Virus record (IMG/VR): IMGVR_UViG_2681813321_000006
DNA: 33,831 nucleotides
Source: a virus
Taxonomy: Duplodnaviria > Heunggongvirae > Uroviricota > Caudoviricetes
Reading direction: 5' to 3' (one strand)
The notes beneath the pieces were generated by a model. That model searched no databases and had not been told where the DNA came from. It worked only from the letters and a program-made list of their open reading frames with translations. How positions within the stretch are numbered: position 1 is the stretch's first letter; the number at the start of each line of letters is the position of its first letter. Positions 2,723-32,794 of the stretch are shown here, one piece after another. A program made the translations under genes and the position numbers.

Positions 2723-3075
2723 TACGCCTCCGATTTAACAGTCGTTATTCCATAGAGAGTGTCGATTTCAGCGGAAAACATGACACGTCGGGTCGTGGTA
2801 TCCACCGTCGTATTGAAAGAGAGGATTGATTTAACGCCCCGCGTTTCGAGGATGCGCTTACGGATCGCCAGGTTGTAGGTTTCCGGCTTCTGCTTACCGA
2901 GCACAGACTGGATCCACGGGGTCCCTTCGGTGGTGTCGAGAAACCATTGCCCATACCACAATTCAAATCGCGTTTTTACCGCCTGCGCCACGGCCTCCGG
3001 TGAGTTAATCAGCCAGGTGTCATCACCGCTGCCAAAGGTGTAATCGCCATCGGCGTCTTCACGTCTGTATCGCAT
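2722..3075 (-). CDS. Small baseplate protein (gpW/GP46-like)
   Basis: 117-aa ORF between the spike-like and J-like genes, start/stop coupled with both. Positional call. Confidence 0.45.
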   Translation of the reverse strand: MRYRREDADGDYTFGSGDDTWLINSPEAVAQAVKTRFELWYGQWFLDTTEGTPWIQSVLGKQKPETYNLAIRKRILETRGVKSILSFNTTVDTTTRRVMFSAEIDTLYGITTVKSEA

Positions 3076-3827
3076 CAGTTTACCCTATCGGTATTGCTTC
3101 CACCGCGCTGAACACCGCCATGAGTGTGCGTATCATCGATTGGCTTGCCGTTAGCCTTCACGCTCCCCAAAAACTCAACAGCACCAGTGATTTTTGAAGC
3201 CACACCAGAAACCACAGACCCCACCATGCCCCCCATCCAGGTTAACAGGCCATGAATGGTTACTTTCTCAGAAAAATCAGCCAGAGGGGCAACCACATCA
3301 AGACCACCCGGAGCGACAATTTTAATTTTCCTGGTATCAGGATTAAGCTCAAAATAGGTGCTGCCGTCATCACTACGCAACTGTGTGGCACTGGTATTAA
3401 TACCGCTAATCCTCCTTGCCTGCGACTGGGGACCGACAATACAAAACGCATCCGATAAATCATGCATTCTGTCATCGACCGTCTCCTGTATCCCGCCACT
3501 CTGCCACCAGAAATCGATGCAGCGATCGGCAAAAATCACCAGGCATTCATCGCCGGCTTTTACCGGGAAAGTTAACGTGCAGCCGCCGCCGCGCGGAAAT
3601 ACCACCGGCACATCCACCAGCAGCGGGTAATTTTTGGTTACGCGGTTGCCGTCGTTGTCGGTTTCAACCGAACGAATAGCAGGCTGCACAACCGCCGTCA
3701 CCGCGTCAGGATCGAATGACTGAACGATGCCAGGCAAAGCGACGCGGATCTGGTTCTTTGTGGTTTCCCGCTCGGATTTGAATGTTTCGGCAAGGTCGCC
3801 GCTACGAGTCTGGTCTGATATGGCCAT
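3075..3827 (-). CDS. Baseplate spike / gpV-like protein
   Basis: ORF-track start 3860 is a TTG inside a terminator hairpin. First ATG at 3827 is preceded by AGGAG (3836-3840). Motifs LPGIVQSFDPD, VPVVFPRGGG, GDECLVIFADRCID fit the N-terminal domain of phage baseplate spike (gpV/Gp138_N-like) proteins (recollection). Confidence 0.6.
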   Translation of the reverse strand: MAISDQTRSGDLAETFKSERETTKNQIRVALPGIVQSFDPDAVTAVVQPAIRSVETDNDGNRVTKNYPLLVDVPVVFPRGGGCTLTFPVKAGDECLVIFADRCIDFWWQSGGIQETVDDRMHDLSDAFCIVGPQSQARRISGINTSATQLRSDDGSTYFELNPDTRKIKIVAPGGLDVVAPLADFSEKVTIHGLLTWMGGMVGSVVSGVASKITGAVEFLGSVKANGKPIDDTHTHGGVQRGGSNTDRVN

Positions 3828-3841
3828 TTGATAAACTCCTG

Positions 3842-3868
3842 AAAACAAAAAACCCGCCAAGTGGCGGG
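3842..3868 (-). terminator. Intrinsic terminator (minus strand) at the distal edge of the AT-rich baseplate moron
   Basis: Minus-strand RNA reads CCCGCC-ACUU-GGCGGG followed by UUUUUUGUUUU: 6-bp GC stem, 4-nt loop, U-tract. Confidence 0.6.
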
Positions 3869-3889
3869 GCTACAGGAACAACTCTAAGT

Positions 3890-4060
3890 TTATTTTTTCT
3901 GTTTAAAATTGTCCAACTCAGGTTCTTTAACGCTTTCTGTCATGTAATCCAATCCACCAAAAGGTACTTCAAGCATTATACTGCTTTCATAATCAGCCAT
4001 GGATTGCTCTGCTTGCGTTAGCTTGCTTTGCTGTGAGTTGTCATTATTTGATGTTGTCAT
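3890..4060 (-). CDS. Small hypothetical ORF (56 aa) in the AT-rich moron
   Basis: ATG at 4060, TAA at 3890-3892; weak AAGG upstream. Same frame as the upstream membrane ORF, separated by a TAG. Below the ORF-track size cutoff; may be non-coding. Confidence 0.15.
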   Translation of the reverse strand: MTTSNNDNSQQSKLTQAEQSMADYESSIMLEVPFGGLDYMTESVKEPELDNFKQKK

Positions 4061-4063
4061 CAA

Positions 4064-4618
4064 CTATGCCTTATTTATCAAAAGAAAAGTAACCGATAAT
4101 ATGAAAAAACCGAAAGATAACGCAATTCCTTCAAAAAGATAACGAGCGTAAACTGCCTTTTCTTTATGAAGACTTTCGATCAATTCAACAGCTTTACCAT
4201 ACTGAAACATATGGTATCTAAGCGTTTTAATTTTATCACCGTAAAATAAAAAATCATGCTCTTCTTTTCGCTTATGAATAGGCATTTTTGGTATATCTTT
4301 CAGTCCCCAAGTACGCCATAGGAAAAAAAAGCACATAACAATACAAACAAAGCACAGATATGCACAAAGTATAGATAATGTTAAAAACCAATTACTCTTT
4401 AGCCCACTTTTGAAATCAACAGTCCCAAATACAGCCAGTAGAGCAGAGGTTTCTACAGCTAAAATAGCAAGAAGGTAGTTAACTTTGTCCTCAAGACGAC
4501 GATATGTTGATTTTGCTTCCTCATATCTATCTTTATAATATGACGAAATAAAATCAGCGCCTATAGTCTCAATTGCCTTTTGTTCTTCTGTTGTATCTAT
4601 TGACGAACGCTTGCTCAT
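4064..4618 (-). CDS. AT-rich moron membrane protein (about 3 TM helices), unknown function
   Basis: 184-aa ORF. N-terminal charged helical region, then hydrophobic segments LLAILAVETSALLAVFGTV, WFLTLSILCAYLCFVCIVMCFFFLW and IALSFGFFILSVTFLLI. About 30% G+C by hand count versus over 50% in flanking tail genes. Confidence 0.55.
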   Translation of the reverse strand: MSKRSSIDTTEEQKAIETIGADFISSYYKDRYEEAKSTYRRLEDKVNYLLAILAVETSALLAVFGTVDFKSGLKSNWFLTLSILCAYLCFVCIVMCFFFLWRTWGLKDIPKMPIHKRKEEHDFLFYGDKIKTLRYHMFQYGKAVELIESLHKEKAVYARYLFEGIALSFGFFILSVTFLLINKA

Positions 4619-4625
4619 TTCTCAA

Positions 4626-4973
4626 TCAACCAACAACTTTCTTACACGGGAAAGAGCCAATAATTTTCGGAGCATCCATGCTGTTCTGCAACAACTGGAC
4701 GTTCAGGAAACGCGTTTTAGTGCCAGGTCGATGGATATACTCGAACCCATAATTGTTGCCATCTTTGGCAGGCATCAGGTCCATTTTGATCTGCATGCCT
4801 GTACCGTCTTTACCCAACATTTTTACTTTTTGGGACGTTACTGTTTCGCCATTGATTTTAAATAATGAATCAGGGATCGCATCCATACGAAAGTTGCCGC
4901 ATTGCATCGTTATGGTGTTTGCACTTACACCAACAGACACTAATGCCAGCAATGAAAATATCCATCGTTTCAT
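4626..4973 (-). CDS. AT-rich moron secreted/periplasmic protein with signal peptide
   Basis: Refined start ATG 4971-4973 preceded by GAGGA. Product MKRWIFSLLALVSVGVSA|NTI has a classic Sec signal peptide (AXA-like site VSA); two Cys in the mature part. Track start 5054 would overlap the upstream gene. Confidence 0.55.
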   Translation of the reverse strand: MKRWIFSLLALVSVGVSANTITMQCGNFRMDAIPDSLFKINGETVTSQKVKMLGKDGTGMQIKMDLMPAKDGNNYGFEYIHRPGTKTRFLNVQLLQNSMDAPKIIGSFPCKKVVG

Positions 4974-4975
4974 TT

Positions 4976-6040
4976 CTATAATCCTCTCTGAAAAGCAGTG
5001 CTGGATGGCATATCCTGCGCACCGCGCGCTTCGCACATCATATCCATGTACCACGCCTGGCCCCTTGTATCGCCAGTGTACATAATCCCGCGCACAATAT
5101 AAACGCCATCCGTTGCGATGCTGGCAGGCTGCGATGTGGTGCCGCTTAGCGTAATATTTCCGTCCGTGTTCTGGTCGGTGATCTGCCCACCAGCCATAGC
5201 GATATCGTTGTTCGACAACGCGGTGCGATATACGGAAGCCTGATCCAGTTGAATGAGCCCATTAACCCGGATGTTCGGATTAATAAGCGCGCGAACGTTT
5301 ACGCCGTTGCCGATGGTCTGCTGCGGCATGCCAATAAGCCCGGTAGCGCTGTTGAGCACAATCGCTTCGTGAACATATTCATTATTCGCCACCATCTGGC
5401 GCTGACCGTCTACGAATTGCCATGTTGCGCCACATTGCCCGGCTACGTTATCCATTAGATGCCGCGTCATGCCAAAGAGCACCCGCCCCCGGGGGAATAC
5501 AGTAGCAGGCATTTCAGGCGTCAGGCCTTCGGTCGCACCTTTGGCTTCGAAGTCTTTCATCAGCGCACGGTTCACATCAGCGACCGTGTAACCGGCAGCC
5601 AGCGTCTGTGAGGTTATACTGGTGGCAAAAGCCAGATCAGTATCTGCTGCCTGAATCAGGACGTAGGAATCAACCGGACTGTCTTTTCCTGTAACCGAGT
5701 AGCGAATTTCACCGCTGAAAATCAGTCCGTAGTTGCGGCCATCACTCTGGCCCACGTCCGCCGCATCAACCTCCCGCACGATCCCGACGTCGCTTGCCGA
5801 CACCTCCGGCGCGATACCGTCGTAACCCGCAATCAGACGCACTTTCGAAAACTCCCGCCCGGTGATTCGGTTCACAGTATCTGCCGAGAGGTTATAAATT
5901 TTGATAGTCCCTACCCGGGACGCGCTGCTGATGTTGAACCAGTCGATCGTAAAGGTCACTTTAAAATCACTTAGCTCAATTCCCTGACCGTTCCCGTCCA
6001 CAAGCTGCAGCTCGAAATGTCTCATCCAGTTCTGTGACAT
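4976..6040 (-). CDS. Baseplate hub-like tail protein (P2 gpD / Mu gpP position)
   Basis: 354-aa ORF between the post-tape-measure ORFs and the spike gene. Positional/size call only. Confidence 0.4.
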   Translation of the reverse strand: MSQNWMRHFELQLVDGNGQGIELSDFKVTFTIDWFNISSASRVGTIKIYNLSADTVNRITGREFSKVRLIAGYDGIAPEVSASDVGIVREVDAADVGQSDGRNYGLIFSGEIRYSVTGKDSPVDSYVLIQAADTDLAFATSITSQTLAAGYTVADVNRALMKDFEAKGATEGLTPEMPATVFPRGRVLFGMTRHLMDNVAGQCGATWQFVDGQRQMVANNEYVHEAIVLNSATGLIGMPQQTIGNGVNVRALINPNIRVNGLIQLDQASVYRTALSNNDIAMAGGQITDQNTDGNITLSGTTSQPASIATDGVYIVRGIMYTGDTRGQAWYMDMMCEARGAQDMPSSTAFQRGL

Positions 6041-6042
6041 GC

Positions 6043-6345
6043 TTACTCCGTTGATACCAGTAAATGGCTGCGACCGCCCAGGTCAGTTTTTGTGGGGTAA
6101 TCCTGTGTGTTGTCATCACAGACCACCACCAGCTTAAAACCAAGCCCCATACAGGCGTACTGCGCCAGCAGGTCAGCACCAGTGACGAGAGGAATACCGG
6201 AGATTACCGGCTCCCCTCTGTCGTTCTGCAGGTCCATAATCCAGTACAGATCGCGCCATATGATGCTAATCCGCCAGGTAACACCACCCAGGACGATGCT
6301 GAACTGCTGGTTGTCCGCTGTCAGCGGAATTTCCTGAATTGCCAT
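6043..6345 (-). CDS. Tail/baseplate-associated protein, function unassigned
   Basis: 100-aa ORF tightly packed in the tail operon (3-nt gap below, stop/start overlap above). Confidence 0.35.
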   Translation of the reverse strand: MAIQEIPLTADNQQFSIVLGGVTWRISIIWRDLYWIMDLQNDRGEPVISGIPLVTGADLLAQYACMGLGFKLVVVCDDNTQDYPTKTDLGGRSHLLVSTE

Positions 6346-6932
6346 TAGCCGCCCCCCAGTAATGACGCCACGTTACCCGTGATGCTTTTCAGCAGTGAAG
6401 TATCTGGAGGCTTGGTGGTTTTGTTGCCGCTGTTCTGTACCGCCGACGTGCTGGCCCCTTCCTTCATGTTGGTTTTATCCGCGACGGAAATCTGCTGTGT
6501 CCGGGAGATAAGGACCTCCCTCAGGGTGAGGACGGCGGACAGGACGTTTTCGGTTGTCTTGTCCGTCGTCACTTCCAGCGCCCGGATCAACATGTTGCTG
6601 TACAGTCGTTTACCGGTTACCACATCGAAGGGGATACGGCTTTCCTGCAGATCCAGTAGCTCCTGATACGTCTGCTGAGGACTCAGGCCGAGCAGGCTGG
6701 TAGCCGTCAGGTTACTGGCAAAATCCAGCAATGCGCCACCACCGGCGAAACCAACCTCCATCACCACTTCTGACGGTTTTTTATAGGCATGATCAGCGAC
6801 AGCGGCCCCGACCTCTACCGGATGCTCTGTTATTTCAAGCATATCTGTATGCTTCTCTGAAATAACAACACAGGGAACAATCATTCCTATTTTTCTGCTC
6901 TGCTGATGAAAAAGTGTAGAGAGAATATCCAC
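6345..6932 (-). CDS. Tail protein downstream of tape measure, function unassigned
   Basis: 195-aa ORF; start overlaps the tape-measure stop by 1 nt. Positional call. Confidence 0.35.
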   Translation of the reverse strand: MDILSTLFHQQSRKIGMIVPCVVISEKHTDMLEITEHPVEVGAAVADHAYKKPSEVVMEVGFAGGGALLDFASNLTATSLLGLSPQQTYQELLDLQESRIPFDVVTGKRLYSNMLIRALEVTTDKTTENVLSAVLTLREVLISRTQQISVADKTNMKEGASTSAVQNSGNKTTKPPDTSLLKSITGNVASLLGGG

Positions 6933-8920
6933 TAACCCACCCTCACCTGATTACTTCGCATGACCTGAGCATTTGCAGACTGTTGCCGACGTGCAACCTC
7001 ATTACCGACAGCGTGCGGATCTCCACCACCGTAAATGTGGTAGGTATTTTGCTGGTTAACCTCTGTCACTTTGCCACTAATTCCCGCCACGGCAGCCTTA
7101 TTAATCAGCTCCCGAGAATAGATATTTCTTCCATTCTCATGCTGGATAATGCTGCTCATCAATGCTGACATGGTTTGCGGATCGCTCATATTCAGGGCAG
7201 CCCGGGGATCCACTCCCAGTCGTTGCGATACAGCCCTGATATACGCAGTTGTGTTGTTATTATCAGACGCAGGTGCCCAGGTAGAGATAATTTTCTCCAC
7301 ACTGTTTATTCCCCGTCCGGCGTACAGCATTAACTGACGAGCAAGAGCCCGTAATCCATCAAAAGCAGTTTCAAATCTGGCAAATCGCCCGCCCGGGCGT
7401 TCAAGAGAAGCCCCTGCCTGACCAGCAAAATTAAGGTTTCCCGGATTGTTATTCCGTTCTCCTCGTTTCGTAGCCTGTGCATGTTGTTCCGGCTCATCAT
7501 CACCAAACCAGCCGCGTACCGTCCGGCCCACACTGCGGGGATCGAATCCCCAGTGCTCTTTAATCCAGTCGGCAGTACTGTTAGCGCTGTCTGTAACCAT
7601 CGGCATCGCTGACGGATTTTCGCTGCCCTGATTAAGTATCTGTTTGCCGATGCTGACGGCATCAGCCCAGCGGCCATCTTTGATAGCGTTGAGCAGGTCG
7701 GCGATCATGTTCAGCATTTTGCTGAATTCGCCCATCTGGTCGATGAAGTTGCTGAAATCCCACTTCAGGGACCATGATTTGGGGTCAATATTGAGCAGTT
7801 TCGCCAGCGCTTTCACCAGGTCGTTAACGGTCGTTTTAAGGTCACGAACCATCTTCAGCGCGGCATCGACCTCCGGTTTCCACTTGCCCCAGTCAATCAG
7901 GCTGTCGCCGCCTTCCTTCCAGGTCTGATAGTCCTCCCACAGGAGGGCAATACCCGCCGCCAGCGCGGTAATGAGGCCAATCGGCGACATCCAGAACGTA
8001 CTGTTCAGAATGCGCAGCGCAATCGTCAGTGCGCCAAACAGCGAGATCAACTCCCGCGTTTGCTTATCCAGCGATTGCCACCAGGTGATAAGGCCTGATG
8101 TCCCCTCAATCAGTCTGAAGAACAGCCGCCCGATAATATCCCCGAGCGCCAGAATGCCTTTTATGGCTTTCGTCAGGGTCTGCTCGATACGAGGGAAGTT
8201 GTCCAGGATATGGCGGCGCAGGGTGTCCAGCGAACCCGCAAGCCCCCCCGCAAGATTAGAGCCGATTTTGTCACGGGCCATGCCTGCCATCGCGCCAAAC
8301 TCACGCAGGGAGGTCATAAATTTGTTGGAGCTTCTGGCCGCCTCGTCAGCATTGAAGCCGATAGCTTTCGCCATTGCGCTGTACTGCCCGGAGAAGCCAC
8401 CCACACCCCGGCGCATCGCCATAAGGGTATTTTCGTCAATGCCCAGCATCTGCGCATACTGGTTAGCCCGGTAATACGGCATGCTGCTGAGTTTCTGTCC
8501 AACGCCCGTAAAAATAGCGGCCATGTCACGCATGTTACCGCTGGCATCACGGGTCTGTACGCCCAGGCGATTCAGAAAGCCTTCTGCACCGGGATTGTTA
8601 CGAATAAACCGGGATAGGCTTTCCAGAGAAGATCGCGCAGCGTCCACGCTGCCGCCAACCTGCGAAACCGCATAGCCAATAGACTGAATTCCCTGGACTG
8701 TCGCGCCGGTGCGCTGTGACGCCCAGTAAAGATTATCCAGGCCGGAGGCGATCTTAGCCGTGAAGGCCACCACGGACAACGCAGCTCCTTCAACAGCCAG
8801 CCCCATTTTGATGACATTTGCAGTTGTACCGGCGAGGACAGAACCGAACTTTTTCGCTCCTGCATCATCCACACTGAAGCCAAGCGAGACGAGGAAATCT
8901 TTAATAGTTTCAGCGTTCAT
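6932..8920 (-). CDS. Tail tape measure protein
   Basis: Longest ORF in the tail module, between chaperone and baseplate genes. N-terminal Ala/Gly-rich helical region and central hydrophobic segments (LISLFGALTIALRIL, IGLITALAAGIALLW). Track start 8941 is TTG; ATG at 8918-8920 is preceded by GGAGAGAGG. Confidence 0.7.
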   Translation of the reverse strand: MNAETIKDFLVSLGFSVDDAGAKKFGSVLAGTTANVIKMGLAVEGAALSVVAFTAKIASGLDNLYWASQRTGATVQGIQSIGYAVSQVGGSVDAARSSLESLSRFIRNNPGAEGFLNRLGVQTRDASGNMRDMAAIFTGVGQKLSSMPYYRANQYAQMLGIDENTLMAMRRGVGGFSGQYSAMAKAIGFNADEAARSSNKFMTSLREFGAMAGMARDKIGSNLAGGLAGSLDTLRRHILDNFPRIEQTLTKAIKGILALGDIIGRLFFRLIEGTSGLITWWQSLDKQTRELISLFGALTIALRILNSTFWMSPIGLITALAAGIALLWEDYQTWKEGGDSLIDWGKWKPEVDAALKMVRDLKTTVNDLVKALAKLLNIDPKSWSLKWDFSNFIDQMGEFSKMLNMIADLLNAIKDGRWADAVSIGKQILNQGSENPSAMPMVTDSANSTADWIKEHWGFDPRSVGRTVRGWFGDDEPEQHAQATKRGERNNNPGNLNFAGQAGASLERPGGRFARFETAFDGLRALARQLMLYAGRGINSVEKIISTWAPASDNNNTTAYIRAVSQRLGVDPRAALNMSDPQTMSALMSSIIQHENGRNIYSRELINKAAVAGISGKVTEVNQQNTYHIYGGGDPHAVGNEVARRQQSANAQVMRSNQVRVG

Positions 8921-9097
8921 TATCCTCTCTCCATTTCTCAATGCGTCGCTGGTTATCCGCTTTTACCGCCAGATGGTCATTCAAGAGAGCAATGTCATAC
9001 AAATCGACAGAGCCATCTTTAAGTGCTGTATAAGGAATTAACCCGGCGTCAACCGGATTGAGAAGGTAGGACAGCCCGTCCGGCAGGCTGTTAAACG

Positions 9098-16098: not shown

Positions 16099-16872
16099 TC
16101 AGGCGGGATAAGATTGGGAGGTGGGAAAAACGATTTCTTTATAACAGCGACAATTCGGGAGCTCGCCAGCGTGACCTGTCATGCCGTCAAGCGTTGGAGG
16201 TTTGCCCCATTCGACAAATTTACCTTCCATTTCCCGATGAGAATGCCTGACGTCACCATCTTCGGCTGTACGCCAGATATAACTATTCGAACCAATTGAC
16301 AGCGCACGCGCCTGATCCAGCGCGCCGGTTGCACGTCCAAGTTCAGTACGGGCAATCAGGTCAGCTCTGGACTTTGCTATATCACCCGATGCGGCTATTT
16401 CTTTAGCAAAATATTCTGCTCTCCCACCGGTCACAACAGCTTCTGTCGCCCGATTCTGGATGTCGTACACCCTGTCAGCCGCCTCGAGGGGGAGCGATTT
16501 GATGTACTTGACCTGTTCGGCGATGATGGATTGCATCACCTGGCCCACAGGAGCGCTTTCCACAAGATTGCGGAGCTCGCGACTGATGTTCTTGCTGTGT
16601 TGCCGCCAAACTTTCTCGTTCTGCCGGGTTAGGTCCGCAGTAAAGTTTTCCGCGACCTTTGTCGCCCAGGGGGTGATGATTTCACTGTAGCGTTCCAGCG
16701 CCTCAATAATTTCCGTGATACTGTCATTTGAACCATCGTAGCGACCATTTACGATGTCTCCGACCGCCCGCGCTATCCTGCGTAGGCTGGTTCGATAGCG
16801 GATTTCCGCCTGACGGTTCCTGCGGTTCGTCATCAGATTCGCCGATGCCGGGCGGCGCTTCATCTTCGGCAT
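16099..16872 (-). CDS. Head morphogenesis protein (Mu gpF / SPP1 gp7-like)
   Basis: 257-aa ORF downstream of the portal. ATG at 16870-16872 has GAGGA upstream. C-terminal ...LPNCRCYKEI fits the conserved C-terminal Cys motif of this family (recollection). Overlaps the portal ORF by about 149 nt. Confidence 0.55.
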   Translation of the reverse strand: MPKMKRRPASANLMTNRRNRQAEIRYRTSLRRIARAVGDIVNGRYDGSNDSITEIIEALERYSEIITPWATKVAENFTADLTRQNEKVWRQHSKNISRELRNLVESAPVGQVMQSIIAEQVKYIKSLPLEAADRVYDIQNRATEAVVTGGRAEYFAKEIAASGDIAKSRADLIARTELGRATGALDQARALSIGSNSYIWRTAEDGDVRHSHREMEGKFVEWGKPPTLDGMTGHAGELPNCRCYKEIVFPTSQSYPA

Positions 16873-22595: not shown

Positions 22596-23018
22596 TTATG
22601 CCGCCGAGCAGCTCCTACGCAAAGTCCTGATAGCCTGAGGCTTTGACTGAACCGACTGATCCATTTCGAGCACCACATCCAGCATGGCTAAGCAACCGTC
22701 AATAAATCCCTCTGCCGCCTGAAGCCTCTTCAGAACGTGGGTGTGAGATACGCCGAGCTTCTCACCCATCGCCCGCACGGGCATGGCCTGGACGTAATGC
22801 CACTCAAGGAGCGTGCACAGATACGGATCTTTTTTCTTCAGGCAGCTCATAGCGGAGTTGATGATAAGACCGTCATTGTCACTGCATTTCAGCCTTCCAG
22901 ACTGCGTCGCGGGTAGCAGATTCTTAAACCCGGCTGCAACAGGAGGAAAGTAGACGCTACCACCTTCACTCGCTGCCCAGCCACCCCAGCGCTCTAAAAC
23001 CTGTTGAATATTACGCAT
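22596..23018 (-). CDS. Q: Late-gene antiterminator, lambdoid Q-like
   Basis: 140 aa; N-terminal MRNIQQVLERWGGWAA... and overall pattern match my recollection of Phage_antitermQ-type proteins. Lies upstream of intrinsic terminators and the lysis cassette. ATG with GAGGT upstream. Confidence 0.75.
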   Translation of the reverse strand: MRNIQQVLERWGGWAASEGGSVYFPPVAAGFKNLLPATQSGRLKCSDNDGLIINSAMSCLKKKDPYLCTLLEWHYVQAMPVRAMGEKLGVSHTHVLKRLQAAEGFIDGCLAMLDVVLEMDQSVQSKPQAIRTLRRSCSAA

Positions 23019-23146
23019 AGCTCTGACCTCTACGTTTTGCTACGAAAAAATTTTCTGAGAACCACGTCTGTTTATCCGTGGGTGTGGATAACGCAGTTCC
23101 GATTCGCTTATTACACGCTGTTATGTGCAAAAAATTCCTTGTTCGG

Positions 23147-29453: not shown

Positions 29454-30002
29454 ATGAAACTGAAGCTGAACAATGTTCGTCTGGCCTTCCCGTCTCTGTT
29501 TGAAGCTAAAACTGTAAACGGCGAAGGCGATCCGCGTTTCTCCGCAGTATTTTTAATGTCTCCCAAACACCCACAACTGGAAGAAATCCGTAAAGCTATG
29601 AAGCAGGTAGCGAAGGAAAAATGGGGAGAGAAGTGGGAGCCCATTTATAACCAGCTGGAGAAAAAACTCAATCTGTGCCTGCATGATGGTGATGAAAAAG
29701 CAGAGTATGAAGGCTTCCCCGGTAATTTCTTCCTGAATGCTGCTAACAAAGCGCGCCCAGCTGTTCTTGATCGCGATCGTTCGCCACTTATTCAGGCTGA
29801 CGGACGTCCCTATGCAGGGTGCTATGTAAACGCCGTTATCGATATCTGGGCACAGGACAATAATTTCGGTAAACGCATTAATGCCTCACTCGGCGGAGTC
29901 CAGTTCCTGCGAGACGGCGATGCATTCGCTGGCGGCGGAGTGGCAAGCGCTGACGATTTCGACGATATCAGCGAAGGTGCTGATGCTGAAGCACTAATTT
30001 AA
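29454..30002 (+). CDS. DUF2815-like phage protein (putative ssDNA-binding/replication accessory)
   Basis: 182 aa; N-terminal MKLKLNNVRLAFPSLFE... resembles DUF2815 proteins that accompany DUF2800 nucleases and family-A polymerases (recollection). Confidence 0.5.
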   Translation: MKLKLNNVRLAFPSLFEAKTVNGEGDPRFSAVFLMSPKHPQLEEIRKAMKQVAKEKWGEKWEPIYNQLEKKLNLCLHDGDEKAEYEGFPGNFFLNAANKARPAVLDRDRSPLIQADGRPYAGCYVNAVIDIWAQDNNFGKRINASLGGVQFLRDGDAFAGGGVASADDFDDISEGADAEALI

Positions 30003-30017
30003 CCCTACTTCATAGAC

Positions 30018-30036
30018 GCCCGGTTAAACACCGGGC
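30018..30036. other. Hairpin between convergent genes (no U-tract)
   Basis: GCCCGG-ttaaaca-CCGGGC, 6-bp stem, between the DUF2815-like gene (+) and the AT-rich membrane gene (-). Confidence 0.4.
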
Positions 30037-30054
30037 TACTGATTAGGCGTATAA

Positions 30055-30684
30055 TCACTCAGGAATCTTAATCTTTCTCAATTCTTTATTTAGTTCACAG
30101 ATCTTTTTCTTAGACGGGAAAGTATCATACATCCAAAAACCAACAGTCTCTAAAACTATTATCATAACCATATACACAAGATAATTTAAAAGGCCTTCAT
30201 TTTGCCCTATGGAAATAATGCAGATAATAGAAAAAAGGGTAAACAGCACAAAACACAGAAAGGAAAACAGACGACTAATAATAAATAAAAAACCTGAAAA
30301 ATCAACATTAATAAAAAACACTCCGTTATCTTTCTCTATATAATTCTGAAGCTTAATCAACTGATTTATATACTGTCTTTTTTCTAATCTATTGCAAATG
30401 TAAATAACATCTCTTCGGTTATAAGATGATTGCAATTTCAGCGCATCACGAATAATTTTATCATTTATTCTTTTTTCTATGGCACTCTTATCCTCCTCAT
30501 CCAGATAACGTTCATACTTAACTAAATATAAAATTAACTTCTTAACATATTTAGGCTCTTTATACTTATAATTAAAAATGATCTTTCTTATCCAGACTCC
30601 CATAACAATCAAACATGAAAAAATATATCCAGCTATTTTCTCCAGATGCTCTGTATGGTCAATCAAGTATTGGATCATATGCAT
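30055..30684 (-). CDS. AT-rich multi-pass membrane protein inserted antisense in the replication operon (moron; candidate exclusion/abortive-infection effector)
   Basis: 209-aa ORF at about 28-30% G+C (hand count) versus about 60% in the flanking polymerase gene. Hydrophobic segments IAGYIFSCLIVMGVWI, FLFIISRLFSFLCFVLFTLFSIICIISI, LLNYLVYMVMIIVLETVGFW; Lys/Tyr-rich cytoplasmic region. Opposite strand to both neighbours. Confidence 0.55.
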   Translation of the reverse strand: MHMIQYLIDHTEHLEKIAGYIFSCLIVMGVWIRKIIFNYKYKEPKYVKKLILYLVKYERYLDEEDKSAIEKRINDKIIRDALKLQSSYNRRDVIYICNRLEKRQYINQLIKLQNYIEKDNGVFFINVDFSGFLFIISRLFSFLCFVLFTLFSIICIISIGQNEGLLNYLVYMVMIIVLETVGFWMYDTFPSKKKICELNKELRKIKIPE

Positions 30685-30730
30685 AATTAATCTTTTAATC
30701 AGTTAATAGAATAAAAACCAAGGTAAACAC

Positions 30731-32794
30731 ATGTCCAATATACTATGGGGCGACCTGGAAACCTATTGCGAAATCCCTATTACGAACGGTACCCATGCGT
30801 ATGCCGAAGGCGTTGAAGTGATGCTTTTCGCATGGGCTATCAACGACGGGCCAGTAAACGTGTGGGATATCACTGCCGGTGGTGGTATTCCACACGGCTT
30901 ATACGAAGCAATCGCAGACCCTGAAACCCTGCTTTATTTCCATAACTCTCACTTCGACCGCACCGTTCTGCGTTATGCAATGCCGCGCCTGGCACCGCCA
31001 GTCGAACGTTGGCGCGACACAATGGTGCAGGCGCTGGCGCACGGTCTCCCGGGGTCTCTGGGGGAACTCTGCGAAGTACTAGGCGTCCCGCAAGACAAAG
31101 CGAAGGACAAAGAAGGTAAAGCGCTGATCCAGCTGTTCTGTAAGCCACGCCCGAAAAACAGCAAACTGCGCCGGGCCACCAGCAAAACCCACCCGGAAGA
31201 ATGGCGGCGCTTTGTTGCTTACGCCGGACTGGATATCGAGGCAATGCGCGAAGTCTATAAACGTCTGCCGAAGTGGAATTATCAGGGGACAGAACTGGCG
31301 CTCTGGCATCGTGATCAGCAGATCAATGACCGGGGCGTCTGCATGGACGTGGAACTCGCACGCGCTGCGATCGACGCGGTAGACCAGGAACAAAAGCGCC
31401 TGGCAAAGCGTACACAGGAAATGACTGATGGCGAAGTGCAGGCAGCCACACAACGAGACGCGTTGATTAAGCACATTGTTGAATCCTACGGTGTGGAGCT
31501 ACCAGACATGCAACGCAGTACTCTGGAACGTCGTATTGCCGACCCCGATTTACCATCTGCCGTGAAAGAACTGCTGGCTATCCGCCTGCAGGCCAGTACT
31601 ACCAGCACCAGTAAATACAAGGCACTGATGAAAGGCGTAAGCCACGACGGGCGCTTACGCGGTACGCTACAGTTCTGCGGGGCGTCACGTACCGGTCGTT
31701 GGGCCGGACGGCTATTCCAGCCCCAGAACCTTCCCCGCCCTTCACTAAAACAGGAACAAATAGACGAAGGCATCGAAGCACTGAAAGCCGGATGTGCAGA
31801 CCTGCTGTTTGACAATATCATGGAACTAACCAGTTCAGCGTTACGTGGCTGCATTATCGCGCCAACAGGCAAAAAGCTGGTGGTAAGTGACTTGTCGAAC
31901 ATTGAAGGCCGTATGCTGGCATGGCTGGCGGGAGAAGAATGGAAACTGAATGCATTCAGAGAGTACGACGCCGGAACGGGTCCGGACTTATATAAACTGG
32001 CGTATGCAAAAGCTTTCGATATTGCACCAGATGATGTTGATAAACACATGCGTCAGATCGGTAAAGTCATGGAACTCGGTCTGGGTTATGGTGGTGGTGT
32101 GTCGGCCTTCATCACTTTTGCACTGGTTTACGGTCTCGATCTCGACGAGCTGGCGAACGCCGCACTACCAAACATTCCCCGCGATGTTATCCGCGAGGCG
32201 AAAAGCTGGTACGACGAATCGGTTAAACGCAAGTCAACCTACGGGCTTTCTGAACGGGTATTTATCGCCTGCGACTCACTTAAACGTCTCTGGCGCCGGG
32301 CGCATCCCGCGACCTGTGATTTCTGGTACGAACTGGAGCGCACCGTCCGCACTGCAATCGCCACACCGCAAAAAACATTGTATTGCGGTTATCTTAAAAT
32401 CCGCCGCGATGGCGCGTGGCTGCGCATACAGCTACCATCCGGACGCGCTGTATGCTACCCGTCTCCGGTTATCGAAAAAGGGAATATCACCTACATGGGG
32501 GTTAACTCTTATTCGCGTAAATGGCAACGACTCAAAACCTACGGCGGAAAGCTGGTGGAGAACATCACCCAGGCGGCCGCCCGCGACATTCTGGCCGGAA
32601 ACATGCCGCTTATCGAAGATGCCGGTTACAGCATTGTGCTGACGGTACACGACGAGGTGATCACCGAAGCACCTGACACAGAAGATTTCAACGATAAAGC
32701 GCTTTCCGCGCTTCTCTCCACTGACCCCGAATGGGCGCCCGATATCCCACTGAACGCTGGCGGTTTTGAGGCGTACCACTACAAAAAAGATTGA
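30731..32794 (+). CDS. Family A DNA polymerase with N-terminal 3'-5' exonuclease domain
   Basis: 687 aa. Exo motifs: GDLETYCE (DxE), [17 protein letters not shown]. Pol motifs: [15 protein letters not shown] (motif A-like), [16 protein letters not shown] (motif B, K...YG), LTVHDEV (motif C HDE). AAGG RBS. Confidence 0.85.

Follow-up and report, generated by a model that had tools for sequence, protein, structure and literature searches.

Several phages, among them T5 (Llp), phi80, N15 and T1 (the Cor lipoproteins) and T4 (Spackle), encode small exported exclusion proteins beside their tail or receptor-binding genes. The morons of lambdoid phages, and HK97 gene 15 in particular, were reportedly described by Juhala and colleagues in 2000 and by Cumby and colleagues in 2012. 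HK97 gp15 is a small inner-membrane moron product that blocks genome injection, and both it and Lom of phage lambda are envelope proteins from structural operons; Cor is mentioned in the same paper (PMC3594210). In P2-like prophages and P4-like satellites, defense hotspots consist of a fixed junction at which many unrelated systems are exchanged (Rousset et al. 2022, PMC9122126).

We analyzed a 33,831-nucleotide stretch of DNA, referred to as the window, that corresponds to a temperate myovirus prophage of the SEN34-like type in Escherichia coli and matches O103:H2 12009 at 99.9%. Part of its baseplate operon resembles a moron in that extra DNA of deviant G+C content (here 3869–4625, which excludes the neighboring gene sp115) separates tail genes that lie next to each other in relatives and, as in HK97 gene 15, encodes a predicted small inner-membrane protein and is followed by a terminator within a Q-dependent late operon. 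It differs in containing two genes, in having no promoter that a crude scan could find and in its strong terminator, which is common to all cargos and kept at empty sites. The locus also resembles the P2 and P4 hotspots, with variable genes, including validated and candidate anti-phage genes, between conserved flanks. Here, however, the lineage is SEN34-like (genus Brunovirus), and the junction separates a gene for a predicted exported protein from the spike gene, midway through the baseplate operon. A first-pass annotation of this DNA had held that structural operons rarely encode envelope proteins, a statement that overlooks HK97 gp15 and lambda Lom, as well as T5 Llp and the Cor lipoproteins.

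A variable slot with a conserved terminator

All features described here are on the minus strand. The left-hand conserved neighbor of the segment is the baseplate hub gene (4976–6040; 354 aa), which matches PHROG 196 "baseplate hub" (E = 8e-89) and, weakly, Pfam E217_GP41, and whose identity to its counterparts in 46 loci ranges from 45 to 99%. On the right is the baseplate spike gene (3075–3827), recognized by a Pfam N-terminal spike domain (E = 7e-44) and a GpV Apex motif. Three ORFs separate them: sp115 (4626–4973), for a predicted exported protein of 115 aa; tm184 (4064–4618), for a three-transmembrane (TM) protein of 184 aa; and orf56 (3890–4060), for an acidic 56-aa peptide with the RefSeq accession WP_000213605.1. 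None of the three products has a match in Pfam, NCBIfam or PDB-sequence searches.

This region was originally read as one AT-rich segment of about 30% G+C, bounded by the hub stop codon and position 3842. BLASTN comparison places the boundaries elsewhere. Homology with relatives that have other cargo breaks at 4626–4635 and at 3868, and the truly variable DNA is the 757 bp from the sp115 stop codon to the terminator stem (3869–4625). The unusual composition stands, at a different figure. G+C content is 34.5% in the cargo, compared to 54% in the hub gene, 53% in the spike gene and a window mean of 50.4% (z = -3.5), and is as low in only 1.1% of equal-sized windows; it is 42.3% in sp115 alone and 37.3% across 3842–4975.

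The same slot in related loci is between 0 and 1.8 kb long, about 45 slots contain 38 protein clusters, and the relatives carry more than 30 unrelated cargos. They include a PD-Lambda-1-like gene (L030; E = 2.8e-82), a TM protein that carries an Mrr nuclease domain (L022; Mrr/ZorD-like), PDC-S42 (L031), the YafO toxin (L043), DUF2335 and T5orf172 proteins and a recurrent two-gene module encoding 243 and 142 aa, while most of the remaining cargos have no annotation. The isolated phages SEN34 and Mulock have an identical layout with different cargo. Because relatives carry so many unrelated cargos, defense genes among them, we consider the slot to be an accessory and defense hotspot. In our account, recombination is concentrated where the sp115 stop codon meets the terminator, with unrelated accessory genes swapped via the conserved flanks. 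The cargo studied here was found in 21 of 5,426 E. coli genomes, compared to 353 for the flanks, and is 99–100% identical among those 21 genomes, which belong to different serotypes. Against the DEC5B prophage, only 2 of 1,148 nucleotides differ in the block 3828–4975, amid a spike gene that is 93.8% identical and a hub gene that is 97.1% identical, a pattern that points to recent lateral exchange. Literature searches based on the accessions of the proteins, on the names STY1065/STY2022 and Brunovirus, and on a hotspot in the baseplate region returned no description. By that search, neither the slot nor the tm184–orf56 pair has been described previously; the general type of prophage feature is familiar.

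The slot ends in an intrinsic terminator hairpin (3843–3868), identified in a terminator scan. Its stem (3868–3853) has six G-C pairs and a loop of four nucleotides (CCCGCC-ACTT-GGCGGG), and the T-run that follows stops about 15 nucleotides upstream of the spike start codon. Across the operon's first 20 kb, the coding strand has no other strong canonical terminator. Although the hairpin was initially assigned to the inserted segment, 41 of 47 unique relatives have it at the corresponding position, independent of cargo. It is found where sp115 is the only intervening gene (L047) and also in L039, L045 and L049, in which hub and spike are directly adjacent; in most other relatives sp115 lies between those two genes. 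Pairing is kept despite changes on both arms in 4 of 29 unique hairpins, and the stem core is almost invariant. This distribution marks the terminator as probably belonging to the site and not to a cassette; it forms the conserved right-hand edge of the hotspot.

A terminator ahead of the spike gene had been taken to require either read-through or an internal promoter. The first option has an ordinary explanation in a Q-family antiterminator ("antiterminator Q family protein," WP_001244506.1), encoded at 22598–23020. Downstream of this gene, on the same strand, are all of the lysis, head and tail genes. During lytic growth, Q-modified RNA polymerase would pass the terminator and allow spike and the wedge genes to be expressed. 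The lysogen may also express the cargo, and there the terminator would halt any transcription coming from the cargo. A promoter-like site at 3915–3887 was considered for the spike gene and rejected, as it sits upstream of the terminator and cannot drive spike. A minus-strand scan for consensus sigma-70 promoters, a crude method that may miss weak or non-sigma-70 promoters, found none upstream of sp115 or tm184, and tm184 starts only 7 nucleotides past the sp115 stop codon; expression from a repressed prophage is therefore unsupported. Such expression is expected of a defense or conversion gene.

The tm184–orf56 pair

The prediction of a three-TM protein with a charged helical N-terminus was borne out by hydropathy and structural modeling. 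tm184 contains hydrophobic 19-mers at residues 49–67, 81–99 and 163–181 behind that N-terminus, its charges fit an N-in topology and its AlphaFold2 model is all-helical (mean pLDDT 80.5). There is no sequence relation to HK97 gp15/YebO. Only 12 close homologs were found among 5.8e9 proteins, and all those checked occupy the same slot. The family alignment has 23 invariant residues, and a YRRLEDK motif is conserved immediately before TM1.

A profile search extended the family to 78 distant relatives. PADLOC models for PycTM are matched by 21 of the 73 relatives scanned (best E = 1e-8). tm184 itself gives weak matches to PycTM (E = 2.6e-4, 19 bits) and to a CBASS 2TM effector model (E = 7e-3), and these PycTM and 2TM matches fall on hydrophobic helices, where composition can inflate scores. 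The CARF-TM model of PADLOC is also among the matches of tm184 or its distant relatives. The remote likeness to PycTM and to the 2TM/SLATT-like effectors of CBASS covers the juxtamembrane helix, TM1 and TM2, and both kinds of effector are, like tm184, small, all-helical and found in mobile defense contexts. Unlike a Pycsar effector, however, tm184 has neither an adjacent pyrimidine cyclase nor a nucleotide-binding domain, and its partner is a small peptide. In contrast to CBASS, there is no CD-NTase or SMODS neighbor and no SLATT match in Pfam. More broadly, neither tm184 nor its 73 scanned relatives contain a Pfam domain, including SLATT and cyclic-nucleotide-binding domains, and no cyclase gene is present in any tm184 context examined; the neighbors here are sp115, orf56 and spike. 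Distant homologs occur outside phages, both in chromosomal islands and as cargo of a Tn7-like element; another adjoins UvrD-like and DUF4760 genes.

The 56-aa ORF, which had been offered as a possibility, is real: it is annotated in RefSeq and conserved after every 184-aa homolog checked. Its product is hydrophilic, with a pI of 4.3. An ORF of 34–65 aa follows every tm184 homolog examined, either overlapping it or at most 13 nucleotides away, and these small ORFs share the motif VPFGxL...TES. The synteny is kept down to 26–39% identity in Citrobacter, Klebsiella and Serratia. Furthermore, some distant homologs carry the peptide as a fused C-terminal tail. A profile of the small ORFs matched both the ORF downstream of a distant homolog (E = 2e-4) and the tail of a fused one (E = 0.016). 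With reversed sequences as a control, no match fell below E = 1. Synteny and profile matches thus indicate that the true pair is tm184 with orf56, and not sp115 with tm184. The fused forms pose a puzzle of topology. The positive-inside rule places the C-terminus of tm184, and hence the fused tails, in the periplasm, whereas the separate peptides have no signal sequence.

These features suggest that tm184–orf56 most likely acts at the membrane in anti-phage exclusion or abortive infection, and that the pair probably protects its host against other phages. tm184 would be an inner-membrane protein distantly related in form to the Pycsar and CBASS membrane effectors, and orf56 may regulate it. In response to a phage-derived cue, tm184 would perturb the inner membrane, preventing the entry of DNA or causing the infected cell to die, and the lysogen population would be protected.

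Alternatively, the pair could serve the phage that carries it, as a toxin/antidote addiction module, a holin-like accessory in lysis timing or a means of conditioning the membrane for its own tail tip, expressed as part of the late operon. The tight coupling of its start to sp115, with no promoter of its own found, fits this idea, as does the resemblance of a small partner gene beside a membrane protein to toxin-antitoxin organization. The confinement of close homologs to the slot in this phage lineage also agrees with it. We nevertheless consider a phage-serving role unlikely. Only 21 of the 353 E. coli prophages of this type (6%) have the pair, which gives way to unrelated genes elsewhere and so is not needed for the life cycle. 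In addition, the prophage already encodes a lambda-family holin and an endolysin, and the homologs in Tn7 cargo and chromosomal islands lie outside phages altogether. On general defense, we also note that finding close homologs of tm184 only in this slot could mean that its role is tied to the biology of the phage itself.

sp115, a backbone gene beside the tail tip

The sp115 start codon lies 2 nucleotides past the hub stop codon, and the two genes are translationally coupled. A homolog with 29–98% identity is found directly 3′ of hub in about 43 of 50 loci (about 85%). In seven of these loci (L033, L034, L037, L038, L041, L042 and L047), it is the sole gene between hub and spike. Homologs form at least 386 protein clusters in a search of 5.8e9 proteins, and the protein matches PHROG 3443. 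In newer RefSeq versions, sp115 (WP_000832849.1) is named "STY1065/STY2022 family phage-derived protein," a functionally uninformative label, and the accession has no match in the NCBIfam release 20 library. We conclude that sp115 belongs to the backbone of the SEN34-like temperate myoviruses and is neither insert nor cargo.

As the first reading had proposed, sp115 begins with a hydrophobic, signal-like stretch and contains two cysteines. A signal-like N-terminus is found in all 40 unique family members, of which 35 have exactly two cysteines, and lipobox variants are present. In the AlphaFold2 model (mean pLDDT 81), the protein forms an eight-stranded β-barrel, with the two conserved cysteines placed to close the barrel by a disulfide. 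This fold is common to periplasmic inhibitor and immunity proteins. There is weak similarity to the fold of a phage lipoprotein in BFVD (E = 0.018) and no match to the PliC/MliC lysozyme inhibitor family profile. A second signal-peptide, two-cysteine protein is part of the cargo in L003. We considered it as a tandem duplicate of sp115 and rejected this origin, as the two do not cluster by BLASTP.

From these properties, we infer that sp115 is exported to the periplasm, has its site of action at the envelope, in the lysogen or the infected cell, and does not form part of the virion. It would be translated together with hub and reach the periplasm as a small, disulfide-closed β-barrel, or as a lipoprotein in some relatives. 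There it may, for example, exclude phages that have the same tail tip. T5 Llp, the Cor proteins and T4 Spackle, which are likewise small exported proteins or lipoproteins encoded beside tail-tip genes, are plausible analogs, but they have no sequence similarity to sp115.

A different role for sp115, in which it works together with hub and spike, either in assembling the tail tip or as a minor component of the virion, would explain its fixed place between those genes and its coupling to hub. It would also fit six minimal clusters that adjoin primase genes and lack the rest of the tail genes, yet keep sp115 in the order Dit, plug, hub, sp115 and spike. Even so, we think such a role improbable. 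Virion assembly is cytoplasmic, whereas the universal signal-like N-terminus, the cysteine pair conserved for a disulfide and the lipoprotein variants all suit a protein outside the cytoplasm. sp115 is missing from three otherwise complete tail modules and is therefore dispensable for the virion. It also diverges much faster than hub, with identities of 52–61%, for example, where hub is 95–96% identical. The first reading had stated that homologs conserved as virion components in related phages would count against it; sp115 does show that conservation, and nothing suggests that it is a virion component.

Two further comparisons were made. Co-variation between sp115 and spike types would be expected if sp115 bound spike; we observed no such pattern, with identities of 92% for sp115 and 78% for spike in L005 and of 53% and 90% in L016. 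A Pfam SLT domain is found in the tape-measure protein of L008 and L023, but not in that of this prophage or of the three loci without sp115.

The initial interpretation had been that the whole of 3842–4975 is a single inserted cassette with its own terminator, in which sp115 and tm184 form an effector-immunity or exclusion pair. Its overall G+C content (37%), which is below that of the window, and the near-identity to DEC5B of sp115, cargo and terminator as one block between differing flanks are what such a cassette would produce. Synteny contradicts this view, and we regard it as very unlikely. More than 30 other cargos are found beside sp115, which can also occur without any, and tm184 in Serratia and Klebsiella follows a different first gene, which encodes a lipoprotein of 224 or 296 aa. 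The terminator, too, is present at empty sites, and the breakpoints fall inside the proposed cassette. Least probable of all is that the cargo serves neither phage nor host and is a neutral hitch-hiker, or selfish or decaying DNA in a site that tolerates insertions: it is rare, AT-rich and foreign in composition, but both ORFs are intact and remain paired in different genera at identities between 98% and 26%, the family retains its 23 invariant residues and the 21 genomes of different serotypes share 99–100% identical copies.

Two layers at the baseplate locus

Overall, we favor a two-layer account, with a probability of roughly 0.6, in which sp115 belongs to the phage backbone and the adjoining hotspot holds tm184–orf56 as a membrane-acting protective module. 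The earlier proposal of an envelope exclusion or conversion module inside the baseplate operon holds to the extent that the DNA is exchanged, accessory and envelope-directed, and exclusion or defense is the best reading of it; the suggested effector/immunity pair does not hold. With this corrected anatomy, the functional unit to consider is tm184 with orf56, not sp115 with tm184.

A more ambitious joint reading, which we put forward only tentatively, is that tm184 and orf56 may be the first example of an undescribed two-component membrane defense system. Its effector would be PycTM-like but cyclase-free, and would be controlled by a short acidic peptide, either separate or fused. Such a system would have spread in prophage hotspots, Tn7-like elements and chromosomal islands. 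By the same reading, the slot would be an unrecognized defense hotspot, and sp115 would be an exclusion factor matched to the tail tip.

Prophage hotspots are a productive source of new anti-phage systems. This one occupies an unusual place, inside the baseplate operon of a phage group that E. coli, Salmonella and Klebsiella commonly carry, and at least one validated type of defense gene is already among its contents. The tm184–orf56 pair and the 243 + 142-aa module are concrete candidates. For its part, sp115 is a widespread phage protein that is predicted to be exported and could explain exclusion among these prophages.

Composite structure of the hub-to-spike segment

All genes of the segment lie on the minus strand. 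The hub gene (4976-6040) is followed by sp115 (4626-4973), a 115-aa ORF whose ATG lies 2 nt past the hub stop codon, by tm184 (4064-4618), a 184-aa ORF that starts 7 nt past the sp115 stop codon, and by orf56 (3890-4060), which encodes a 56-aa peptide. Next come a hairpin with a T-run, CCCGCC-ACTT-GGCGGG (3868-3843), a ribosome-binding site and the spike gene (3075-3827). sp115 has one hydrophobic segment, at its N-terminus, orf56 has none, and tm184 has three, with a charge pattern that fits an N-in topology. ORF order, hydropathy and charge thus bear out the features listed in the first-pass annotation: a signal-peptide protein, a three-TM protein, a 56-aa ORF and a hairpin. Its figure of about 30% G+C was an overstatement, as we measured 37.3% over the interval it described (3842-4975) and 34.5% over the variable 757-bp cargo alone (3869-4625), compared with 42.3% in sp115, 54% in the hub gene and 50% in the window. 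Only 1.1% of equal-sized windows reach so low a value as the cargo (z = -3.5). A second low-G+C island in the replication module (29659-31066) holds the lowest 757-nt window (start 29989, 29.7% G+C). The island takes in a hypothetical gene on the opposite strand (about 30652-31281), located between those for DUF2815 and DNA polymerase, and may be another accessory insertion.

The segment had been read as a single inserted cassette. The comparison covered 46 loci with hub relatives, taken from a single genome of each species, plus four E. coli variants and nine more loci. An sp115 homologue (29-98% identity) lies directly 3' of the hub gene in about 43 of 50 loci and is the sole gene between hub and spike in seven; the two genes are adjacent without it in three. 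Nucleotide homology with relatives carrying other cargo (E. coli, Citrobacter and others) ends at 4626-4635, the sp115 stop codon, and restarts at 3868, the first base of the terminator stem. Exchange of accessory DNA therefore stands, but not a one-unit cassette with its own terminator. Among 5426 complete E. coli genomes, 353 contain the hub-to-spike region, 283 sp115-like DNA and only 21 the 757-bp cargo. In a comparison with O55:H7 DEC5B, only 2 of 1148 positions differ in the block of sp115, cargo and terminator, against 93.8% and 97.1% identity in the spike and hub genes. Such near-identity between more divergent flanks suggests that larger blocks are also swapped, through recombination in flanking genes.

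The hairpin belongs to the site, being present regardless of cargo. Its core, ACCCGC(C)-loop-(G)GCGGGT plus a T-run, occurs in 41 of 47 unique relatives, ending 15-29 nt before the spike start codon, and is kept whatever lies upstream, including at a locus with sp115 only (L047) and at the three loci with hub directly before spike. Pairing is preserved despite changes on both arms in four of 29 unique hairpins (L014, L021, L025 and L043). The hairpin is absent from six more distant loci in which sp115 abuts the spike gene. Over the operon's first 20 kb, the coding strand has no other strong canonical terminator. We conclude, with a probability of about 90%, that the segment consists of a backbone gene for a predicted exported protein and a hotspot bounded by a shared terminator.

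The prophage and its predicted exported protein

The window is 99.9% identical to a chromosomal prophage of E. coli O103:H2 12009, and a prophage of ETEC H10407 also matches it. In the RefSeq annotation, the late genes form a single long minus-strand operon: Q-family antiterminator, lambda-family holin, endolysin, terminase, head, sheath, tube, tape measure, baseplate and fibre. RefSeq also marks a 'phage minor head protein' gene (about 16099-16834) as frameshifted, so the prophage may not produce virions. The tail fibre gene (148-864) shares only 66.7% identity with its counterpart in the DEC5B prophage, compared with 98% for the neighbouring wedge genes, and just left of the window RefSeq annotates a frameshifted pinE invertase gene with alternative fibre and assembly genes. 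The region is one of host-range switching. RefSeq names near-identical copies of the tape-measure protein (6932-8941) 'lytic transglycosylase'. The Pfam SLT domain is clear in some relatives (L008 2040-4106; L023 2084-4087), and none scored above threshold in the window protein.

sp115 corresponds to PHROG 3443, whose function is unannotated, and its family comprises at least 386 clusters at 90% identity, all from Enterobacterales. Isolated phages with a homologue include Salmonella phage SEN34 (genus Brunovirus), Klebsiella phage Mulock and Yersinia phage YP3. All 40 unique proteins from the compared loci have a signal-like N-terminus, 35 have exactly two cysteines and five a lipobox; C25 and C110 are invariant. 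The predicted structure (mean pLDDT 81) begins with a signal helix, after which eight strands form a barrel; its first and last strands bear the two cysteines. Where the hub is 95-96% identical, sp115 is only 52-61% identical and so evolves faster; we saw no co-variation with the spike across the compared loci. Its predicted export, together with dispensability and fast evolution, speaks for a putative accessory role at the envelope, possibly exclusion, for which T5 Llp, Cor and T4 Spackle would be analogues.

K. aerogenes, Serratia and Rouxiella have longer post-hub proteins (224-379 aa, lipoprotein-type signal) that group with the sp115 family (L055 4098-4988; L058 4147-4821; L023 6068-7207; L024 6071-6811). 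The first three match a strict lipobox, and in the 296-aa K. aerogenes form (L055) the sp115 domain is the C-terminal part. In six relatives, from Rahnella, Acerihabitans, Serratia and Pantoea stewartii, the only tail genes form a short tail-tip cluster, at about 4000-7200 in each of L033, L034, L037, L038, L041 and L042, in the order Dit-like, plug, hub, sp115, spike. The Dit-like gene was not detected in L033, nor the plug in L033, L041 and L042. Sheath, tube and tape-measure genes are lacking upstream of these clusters, as are wedge genes downstream. For L033, L037 and L041, the three loci that we checked, the large upstream ORF is a P4-like primase (Toprim, Zn-ribbon, DUF927 or D5_N). They may be satellite-like elements with their own tail-tip genes.

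Cargo of the slot and the tm184-orf56 pair

The sp115-spike junction is a hotspot for accessory and defence genes: about 45 slots, 0 to 1.8 kb long, yielded non-overlapping ORFs that group into 38 clusters. L030 carries a PD-Lambda-1-like protein (E 2.8e-82), L022 a TM protein with an Mrr-type nuclease domain, L031 PDC-S42 and L043 a YafO toxin. Further cargo comprises DUF2335, DUF4236, T5orf172, a Clp-protease-like protein and several signal-peptide or membrane proteins without annotation. The viable phages SEN34 and Mulock share the layout hub, sp115, one other gene, spike. A two-gene cargo of about 243-273 and 126-142 aa recurs in five genera (L006 and L007, both 6547-7706; L012 5216-6366; L024 6991-8155; L026 6519-7704), although by BLASTP the pairs of L024 (in part) and L026 fall outside the cluster of the others. 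The smaller protein has no match in Pfam or PADLOC and contains SRAYY..YH, an R-x6-H pattern reminiscent of HEPN domains. The two genes are a candidate defence pair. In one E. coli variant (L003 2395-2760, minus strand) the cargo is another protein that has a signal peptide and two cysteines, 121 aa long. It begins '...FKCGDD' and ends '...KTCTKM', superficially like sp115; it does not cluster with sp115 by BLASTP and could be a very divergent duplicate.

The signal-peptide protein had been paired with the three-TM protein, yet shared synteny identifies tm184 and orf56 as the conserved pair. Only 12 tm184 homologues were found among 5.8 billion proteins. The three checked (58%, 54% and 39% identity; metagenome, Klebsiella aerogenes and Serratia) all occupy the same slot, each followed by a 52-57-aa ORF and then the terminator, and a Citrobacter locus has a 26%-identical homologue and a 65-aa ORF there. 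In the family alignment 23 residues are invariant, among them Y-RRLEDK immediately ahead of TM1. The small ORFs encode hydrophilic peptides with a Lys-rich end, and the motif VPFGxL...TES is common to the close ones.

Searching 1.84 billion representatives with a profile added 78 distant relatives, mostly 160-190 aa with the same three hydrophobic segments and none with a Pfam family. PADLOC PycTM models matched 21 of the 73 scanned (best E 1e-8) and tm184 itself (E 2.6e-4); a few relatives matched CBASS 2TM, CARF-TM or RT-SLATT models. Each of the three whose contexts were read is followed by an overlapping 34-53-aa ORF; one sits in a Tn7-like element, at its cargo end, and another adjoins DUF4760 and UvrD-like genes. 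About fourteen have a hydrophilic tail of 40-85 aa past TM3 instead of a separate ORF. Searched with the small-ORF profile, the ORF downstream of P0136 scored E 2e-4, and the tails of P0160, P0196 and P0188 scored between E 0.016 and 0.56; the reversed-sequence control yielded nothing below E 1. These matches lend modest support to the orf56-type peptide being a split-off tail of a tm184-like protein. The tail of P0160 starts with an internal Met, as though a stop codon had been lost. Topology poses a puzzle in P0137, P0145, P0148, P0159, P0160, P0188, P0196 and P0204: by the positive-inside rule the C-terminus past TM3 is periplasmic and fused tails would be too, at odds with homologous separate peptides that have no signal sequence.

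A putative membrane-acting module

The chance that tm184 and orf56 function against phages is, in our estimate, just short of even. They would form a membrane-acting module that either keeps phage DNA from entering or damages the membrane in abortive infection, and the orf56 peptide may be its regulator. In the lysogen, the terminator would shield downstream baseplate genes from cargo transcription. In lambdoid late operons, Q-modified polymerase reads through terminators during lytic growth; a Q gene heads the late operon here, and we infer that Q would likewise override the hairpin. Several points weigh against the overall reading. A promoter scan found none, and the start of tm184 is closely tied to sp115. 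The resemblance to effectors is weak and falls on TM helices, and close homologues occur in this slot only. The topological conflict over the tails also counts against it, as does retention of sp115 in the six minimal tail-tip clusters adjoining primase genes.

The slot follows the same logic as the P2/P4 hotspots (PMC9122126) and the moron concept (PMC3594210), and we found no description of the sp115-spike junction as a hotspot in the literature searched. The segment is a prophage moron or defence hotspot, a known kind of system, with two uncharacterised protein families inside it, both of which deserve testing.
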